64,000 nt of DNA from Escherichia coli (GTDB taxonomy: Bacteria; Pseudomonadota; Gammaproteobacteria; Enterobacterales; Enterobacteriaceae), in NCBI RefSeq assembly GCF_003334335.1, contig NZ_QOWQ01000020.1. One strand, given 5' to 3'. Every line of letters begins with the position of its first letter. The stretch's first letter is position 1. Shown here in pieces: positions 63,793 through 64,000 of this stretch. Under the pieces are notes generated by a model that worked only from the letters and a program-made list of their open reading frames with translations, searched no databases and was not told the DNA's origin. Made by a program: the position numbers and the translations under genes.

Positions 63793-63912
63793 ATGCCTGG
63801 CAGTTCCCTACTCTCGCATGGGGAGACCCCACACTACCATCGGCGCTACGGCGTTTCACTTCTGAGTTCGGCATGGGGTCAGGTGGGACCACCGCGCTAC
63901 GGCCGCCAGGCA
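63793..63912 (-). rRNA. rrfC: 5S ribosomal RNA (distal end of an rrn operon)
   Basis: 120-nt reverse complement TGCCTGGCGGCCGTAGCGCGGTGGTCCCACCTGACCCCATGCCGAACTCAGAAGTGAAACGCCGTAGCGCCGATGG...CCAGGCAT. Confidence 0.97.
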
Positions 63913-64000
63913 AATTCTGTTTCATCAGACCGCTTCTGCGTTCTGATTTAATCTGTATCAGGCTGAAAATCTTCTCTCATCCGCCAAAACAGCTTCGGCG

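Follow-up and report, generated by a model that had tools for sequence, protein, structure and literature searches.

The right edge of a 64-kb Escherichia coli window as the probable promoter-distal tail of the rrnC operon

Introduction

The last few hundred bases of the window (the whole stretch of 64,000 nt of Escherichia coli DNA analysed here) raise the questions of which ribosomal RNA operon they belong to, what lies directly past the final base, and how far coordinates near this edge can be relied upon given that rrn operons are multi-copy. From the 5S rRNA gene and the distal tRNA-Asp and tRNA-Trp genes on the minus strand, the original prediction had claimed the 3' end of an rrn operon, and searches with Rfam and ARAGORN bear this out. 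We read the right edge of the window, with a probability of about 0.98, as the promoter-distal tail of E. coli rrnC (16S, tRNA-Glu, 23S, 5S, tRNA-Asp, tRNA-Trp) on the minus strand, with the layout rrsC-gltU-rrlC-rrfC-aspT-trpT. We would like to note that the rrnC tail is already known, being textbook genome content and among the most thoroughly characterised loci. It implies no new biology. The window was cut arbitrarily within a textbook operon and its right edge marks no biological boundary; the assignment has bookkeeping value only.

Identity of the operon

Rfam covariance models were run at a permissive threshold on the last part of the window, and tRNA genes were also searched for with ARAGORN. 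The 5S model RF00001 matched 63795-63910 on the minus strand with 92.8 bits, above its gathering score of 38 (E = 9e-20), and was covered over its full length (model positions 1-120 of 120). The ends of the mature 5S were taken from the rrfC annotation in K-12 (NC_000913.3), and position 63793, at which the original prediction had begun, coincides exactly with the 3' end of the mature 5S. The features near the edge are as follows, with the basis of each in brackets.

62645-63484, plus strand: hdfR, LysR-type regulator (279-aa ORF; annotated)
63543-63573, minus strand: terminator-like hairpin of 9 bp with a loop of 4, then a U run (consensus scan)
63580-63655, minus strand: tRNA-Trp (CCA), trpT (ARAGORN; Rfam, 64.6 bits; K-12 trpT)
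63664-63740, minus strand: tRNA-Asp (GUC), aspT (ARAGORN; RF00005, 67.7 bits; K-12 aspT)
63741-63792, minus strand: 5S-tRNA-Asp spacer, 52 nt, with a small hairpin (seven-operon alignment; fold)
63793-63912, minus strand: 5S rRNA rrfC, mature, 120 nt (RF00001; rrf/rrfC annotation)
63913-64000, minus strand: 23S-5S (rrlC-rrfC) transcribed spacer, 88 of 92 nt (sequence; K-12 spacer length)
63913-63996, minus strand: putative 84-nt 5' leader of 9S RNA (5S precursor, RNase E substrate), with two predicted hairpins (primer match; fold)
63986-64000, minus strand: putative 3' strand of the long-range helix formed by the 23S flanks (RNase III processing stem; predicted duplex)

The 3' portion of rrnC makes up the final 421 bases of the window on the minus strand (tRNA-Trp, tRNA-Asp, 5S, and partial spacer). 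Among the seven K-12 operon ends, rrnC alone has both tRNA-Asp(GUC) and then tRNA-Trp(CCA) distal to its 5S. The genomic position is likewise that of rrnC, with the convergent hdfR followed by maoP, yifB, and ilvL on the distal side, and hdfR, as a unique convergent neighbor, anchors the operon as rrnC. The 3' end of K-12 rrnC (NC_000913.3 3,946,608-3,947,032) has the same gene order, strands, and flanking genes as the window, and the names used in that record for the genes at the window edge are rrlC, rrfC, aspT, trpT, and hdfR. The K-12 spacings are also kept: 92 nt between 23S and 5S (88 nt of which are inside the window, the remainder coming from reference genomes), 52 nt between 5S and tRNA-Asp, and 8 nt between aspT and trpT. 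The 3' end of rrnH (rrlH-rrfH-aspU) shares with the window its spacer, 5S, 5S-tRNA-Asp spacer, and tRNA-Asp. However, rrnH is without tRNA-Trp, diverges from the window right after tRNA-Asp, and has dkgB rather than hdfR as its neighbor; it also carries an A at the equivalent of 63923, where the window has G, and one extra U in the spacer.

The stop codon of hdfR at 63484 faces the terminator-like hairpin on the rrnC side. The rrnC transcript, which runs in convergent orientation to hdfR, likely ends at this hairpin and U run (63543-63573), directly after trpT; the consensus scan returned 1 site against 1.0 expected in shuffles, and it is the position after the last gene that is the real argument. 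A promoter scan of 63300-64000 found 0 promoters (0.5 expected), which fits the interior and tail of an operon. Searches of the last 6 kb (E of at most 1) also returned two families overlapping the tRNAs and terminator, YrlA (29 bits; gathering score 69) and NsiR1 (23.9 bits; gathering score 39), both of which were rejected as matches far under threshold that are due to chance or tRNA-like. ORFs of 35-60 aa running across the 5S/tRNA region on both strands were dismissed as mechanical, lying inside structural RNA genes.

The spacer and the gene beyond the edge

The rrlC-rrfC spacer of K-12 measures 92 nt (NC_000913.3 3946608-3946699). Exactly 88 nt (63913-64000) remain in the window past the 5' end of the 5S, in agreement with the roughly 88 nt of 5S-23S spacer that had been proposed, and the spacer bases absent from the window are 4 nt, ACAA in RNA sense. 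Counted in this way, the window edge at 64000 would fall 4 nt before the 3' end of 23S. The locus from NZ_CP126598.1 (L001) is 100% identical to the window over 62400-64000 (1601 bases). Past the window end it continues with TTGT; next comes AAGGTTAAGC..., which is the 3' terminus of 23S (...GCUUAACCUU) in reverse complement. According to L001 and K-12 MG1655, 23S would begin at window-equivalent position 64005, 5 nt past base 64000. Rfam covariance models detected a complete LSU rRNA in L001 (2872 bits; model positions 1-2925) as well as an SSU rRNA (1577 bits), and the RefSeq annotation order past the edge in both L001 and K-12 MG1655 is 23S, tRNA-Glu, 16S, and the divergent yieP. In NZ_CP126598.1 and K-12, outside the window, 23S is found 92 nt upstream of 5S, with tRNA-Glu and 16S before it.

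The suggestion that a 23S gene lies just beyond the edge therefore holds in L001 and K-12, but it does not start there: because rrnC reads from right to left (minus strand), the end of 23S nearest the edge is its 3' end. Every reference examined carries 23S in the sequence past the edge, as had been anticipated. For the source genome, the presence of 23S is suggested by identical and near-identical genomes together with the spacer and processing-stem sequence within the window. The final 1601 bases, beneath which lie maoP, hdfR, tRNA-Trp, tRNA-Asp, and rrf, match complete E. coli genomes in 5426 of 5426 cases, with at least 80% of the query covered in 5422 of the 5426, and at least 11 complete genomes are 100% identical over these bases at the hdfR locus.

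Extent of the repeat and alternative readings

We aligned the window with the 3' ends of the seven rrn operons of K-12. The stretch common to all seven is 63788-64000 (213 nt, comprising the spacer, 5S, and about 5 nt after it), with isolated differences only. The adjoining 63664-63787 (5S-tRNA-Asp spacer and tRNA-Asp) is common only to rrnC and rrnH and adds about 124-129 nt, for a repeated stretch of 337 nt when the part shared with rrnH is counted. The sequence turns unique at tRNA-Trp and remains so through the terminator and hdfR, and no other K-12 operon aligns at trpT. Across the genome collection, 5S plus spacer occurs at a median of 8 places per E. coli genome, and the segment 63485-63792 at a median of 3 places, which we read as tRNA-Asp gene copies; in 5425 of 5426 genomes, a single place covers at least 80% of the segment. 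The neighboring tRNA-Trp/hdfR sequence occurs over its full length at one place per genome. The caution that had been raised about multi-copy sequence near this edge is correct in that the repeat is real, but it is overstated for the window, in which only the 213 nt are common to all operons. Where caution over assembly really applies is the roughly 5 kb past the window edge. Nothing within the window points to repeat copies having been collapsed or joined into a chimera, and the unique sequence that begins at tRNA-Trp and hdfR and continues inward gives its coordinates a safe anchor. Within the repeat, the window has G (RNA sense) at 63923, and only rrnC has G among the seven K-12 operons. 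At 5S position 12 (63901) the window has C, as do rrnC, rrnH, rrnD, and rrnG, and not the base of rrnB, rrnA, and rrnE.

One could suppose that the 5S-spacer end came to lie beside aspT-trpT through assembly or through recombination among rrn operons, either from another operon or as a repeat that is chimeric or collapsed, such that the native rrlC is not beyond the edge. The median of 8 places per genome for 5S plus spacer is in keeping with this, and position 63992 carries the allele of K-12 rrnH, rrnB, rrnD, and rrnG and not that of rrnC, as gene conversion between operons would give. Nevertheless, we consider this reading very improbable: the repeat in the window is only 213 nt long (337 nt with rrnH) and runs unbroken into unique sequence, the G at 63923 is specific to rrnC, and at least 11 independent complete genomes carry the identical 1601 nt at the hdfR locus. 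Whichever operon the end came from, 23S precedes such a spacer in 7 of 7 K-12 operons.

A second supposition, to which we attach next to no probability, is that no 23S lies upstream and that the 5S and tRNAs form an orphan cluster or are what remains of a truncated rrn operon. The window itself holds no 23S sequence, and 5S copies without a 23S of their own do exist, such as rrfF in rrnD, after thrV. However, the 88 nt upstream of the 5S are authentic 23S-5S spacer, identical or nearly so to that of the seven K-12 operons, and the 3' strand of the processing helix of 23S falls within them; 23S lies 5 nt beyond the edge in every reference examined, and the window is collinear with K-12 to its final base. 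Misassembly, a chimera, and an orphan 5S were all rejected in favor of the rrnC tail on the shortness of the repeat, the base at 63923, the at least 11 identical genomes, and the collinearity with K-12.

Predicted processing of the transcript

The spacer fragment in the window is functional precursor RNA, of a kind with known roles in processing. A published T7 primer for in vitro 9S RNA begins GAAGCTGTTTTGGCGGATGAG (PMC2948425). This primer start equals spacer bases 5-25 in RNA sense, its first base mapping to 63996, and the window accordingly has 84 nt starting GAAGCUGUUUUGG... directly upstream of the 5S. If the published transcript starts at the native 5' end of 9S, the whole of the 9S leader (63913-63996) falls within the window. 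The 9S RNA that is the classical RNase E substrate, which comes from rrnB, has an 84-nt leader and a 5S body like those of the window, and the leader start in the window, GAAGCUGUUUUGGCGGAUGAG, is the same as in the published construct. In the leader, K-12 rrnB differs from the window at a single base (63923), and within 5S it differs at position 12 (C in the window, A in rrnB). The rrnB 3' trailer enters terminator T1, whereas the trailer in the window leads to tRNA-Asp and tRNA-Trp, and here the downstream end of the precursor would presumably be set by RNase P cutting at aspT.

RNase E cuts about 3 nt on both sides of the mature 5S, in AU-rich single-stranded contexts, and exonucleases finish the ends; AU-rich single-stranded contexts of this kind, ACAGAAUUUG and CAUCAAAUUAAG, are present in the window sequence. 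We folded the 260 nt of precursor between the window end and tRNA-Asp (-90.4 kcal/mol, z = -2.66), and the predicted fold has helix I of 5S closed, two hairpins in the leader, and one in the trailer. Passages of PMC6582327, citing Ghora and Apirion 1978, describe RNase E as involved in E. coli 5S maturation, and no statement specific to rrnC was found in PMC3082872.

The partner strand of 63986-64000 lies about 2.9 kb outside the window, and the 5' strand used for the duplex prediction was taken from L001. The 23S 5' flank (...GAAACAUCUUCGGGUUGUGA, then GGUUAAG of 23S) shows extended complementarity to the 23S 3' end and its flank (UUAACCUU-ACAA-CGCCGAAGCUGUUUU), the predicted duplex running over about 31 bp that a single mismatch and a single bulge interrupt. 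The duplex has a predicted energy of -36.5 kcal/mol, compared with -17.8 +/- 3.8 kcal/mol (best -30.0) when the 3' strand was shuffled 300 times. As stated in passages of PMC6582327, the stems flanking 16S and 23S are RNase III substrates, and their cleavage liberates the 16S, 23S, and 5S precursors. Judging from those passages and from the 5' end of the 9S construct (PMC2948425), RNase III would cleave at the helix predicted here. As a separate observation, the Rfam family StyR-44 matches L001 at 11516-11624 (minus strand) with 124.9 bits, directly upstream of 23S in the 16S-23S spacer. The matched stretch contains the 5' strand of the 23S stem, and this 'npcRNA' family is therefore probably an rRNA-precursor fragment.

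The pathway we propose for rrnC is established knowledge mapped onto the sequence, with cleavage positions from the literature or general knowledge. The operon would be transcribed as a single long precursor, in which the 23S flanks would pair into the long helix, with 63986-64000 as its 3' strand. RNase III would cut this helix to give pre-23S and a '9S' precursor beginning at 63996, after which RNase E would cut a few nucleotides to either side of the 5S (63793-63912) and exonucleases would trim the ends. As judged from general tRNA biology, tRNA-Asp and tRNA-Trp would be freed by RNase P and 3' exonucleases. Transcription would stop at the hairpin and U run at 63543-63573, opposite the convergent hdfR.

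The sole difference between the window and K-12 in the last 1601 nt falls within the predicted helix. At 63992 the window has C (RNA sense) and K-12 rrnC has A, which changes a U-A pair to a U.C mismatch and the predicted energy of the helix from -41.2 to -36.5 kcal/mol. The C allele is also found in K-12 rrnH, rrnB, rrnD, and rrnG. Given this distribution, the difference is an ordinary polymorphism among operons, which gene conversion may have spread. A stronger interpretation, in which it is the trace of a recent gene conversion and slightly alters the kinetics of 23S/9S processing, or in which an rrn-mediated rearrangement lies past the edge, seems to us unlikely.

The remainder of the window

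The entire window aligns as one block with K-12 MG1655 4,010,596-3,946,612 (reverse strand) at 99.956% identity, with 13 mismatches and 3 indels. Its content runs through pldB, recQ, uvrD, xerC, cyaA, the hem genes, glmZ, argX-hisR-leuT-proM, the ECA cluster, rho, trxA, rep, the ilv genes, and hdfR, up to rrnC. The following RNA features lie at the positions expected from K-12.

23971-24177, minus strand: GlmZ sRNA
27798-28234, minus strand: argX-hisR-leuT-proM tRNA cluster
44819-44918, minus strand: trxA 5'-UTR thermometer

In the window, ilvG is intact as a 548-aa ORF (58405-60051, minus strand); K-12 is without the AT of 59074-59075, and the annotation treats the K-12 gene as a pseudogene with a frameshift. 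The source strain is therefore not K-12, despite the 99.956% identity over 64 kb. An Rfam match to RF02744 ('Soft rot Enterobacteriaceae Rev 39 5'UTR'; 157 bits) was found at 60071-60363 on the minus strand, spanning the 32-aa ilvL leader ORF (60191-60289) and ending just upstream of ilvG; RF02744 seems to correspond, under a different name, to the ilvGMEDA leader/attenuator region. At 60420, in the intergenic stretch between ilvL and yifB and upstream of the leader, the window has one T more than K-12. At 22673-22684 it also has 12 bases more than K-12 (K-12 coordinate 3,987,925), which read TGCACCTGCACC and consist of a 6-nt unit present twice and in frame. This insertion sits in hemX near the 3' end and is a small difference in the copy number of a coding tandem repeat.
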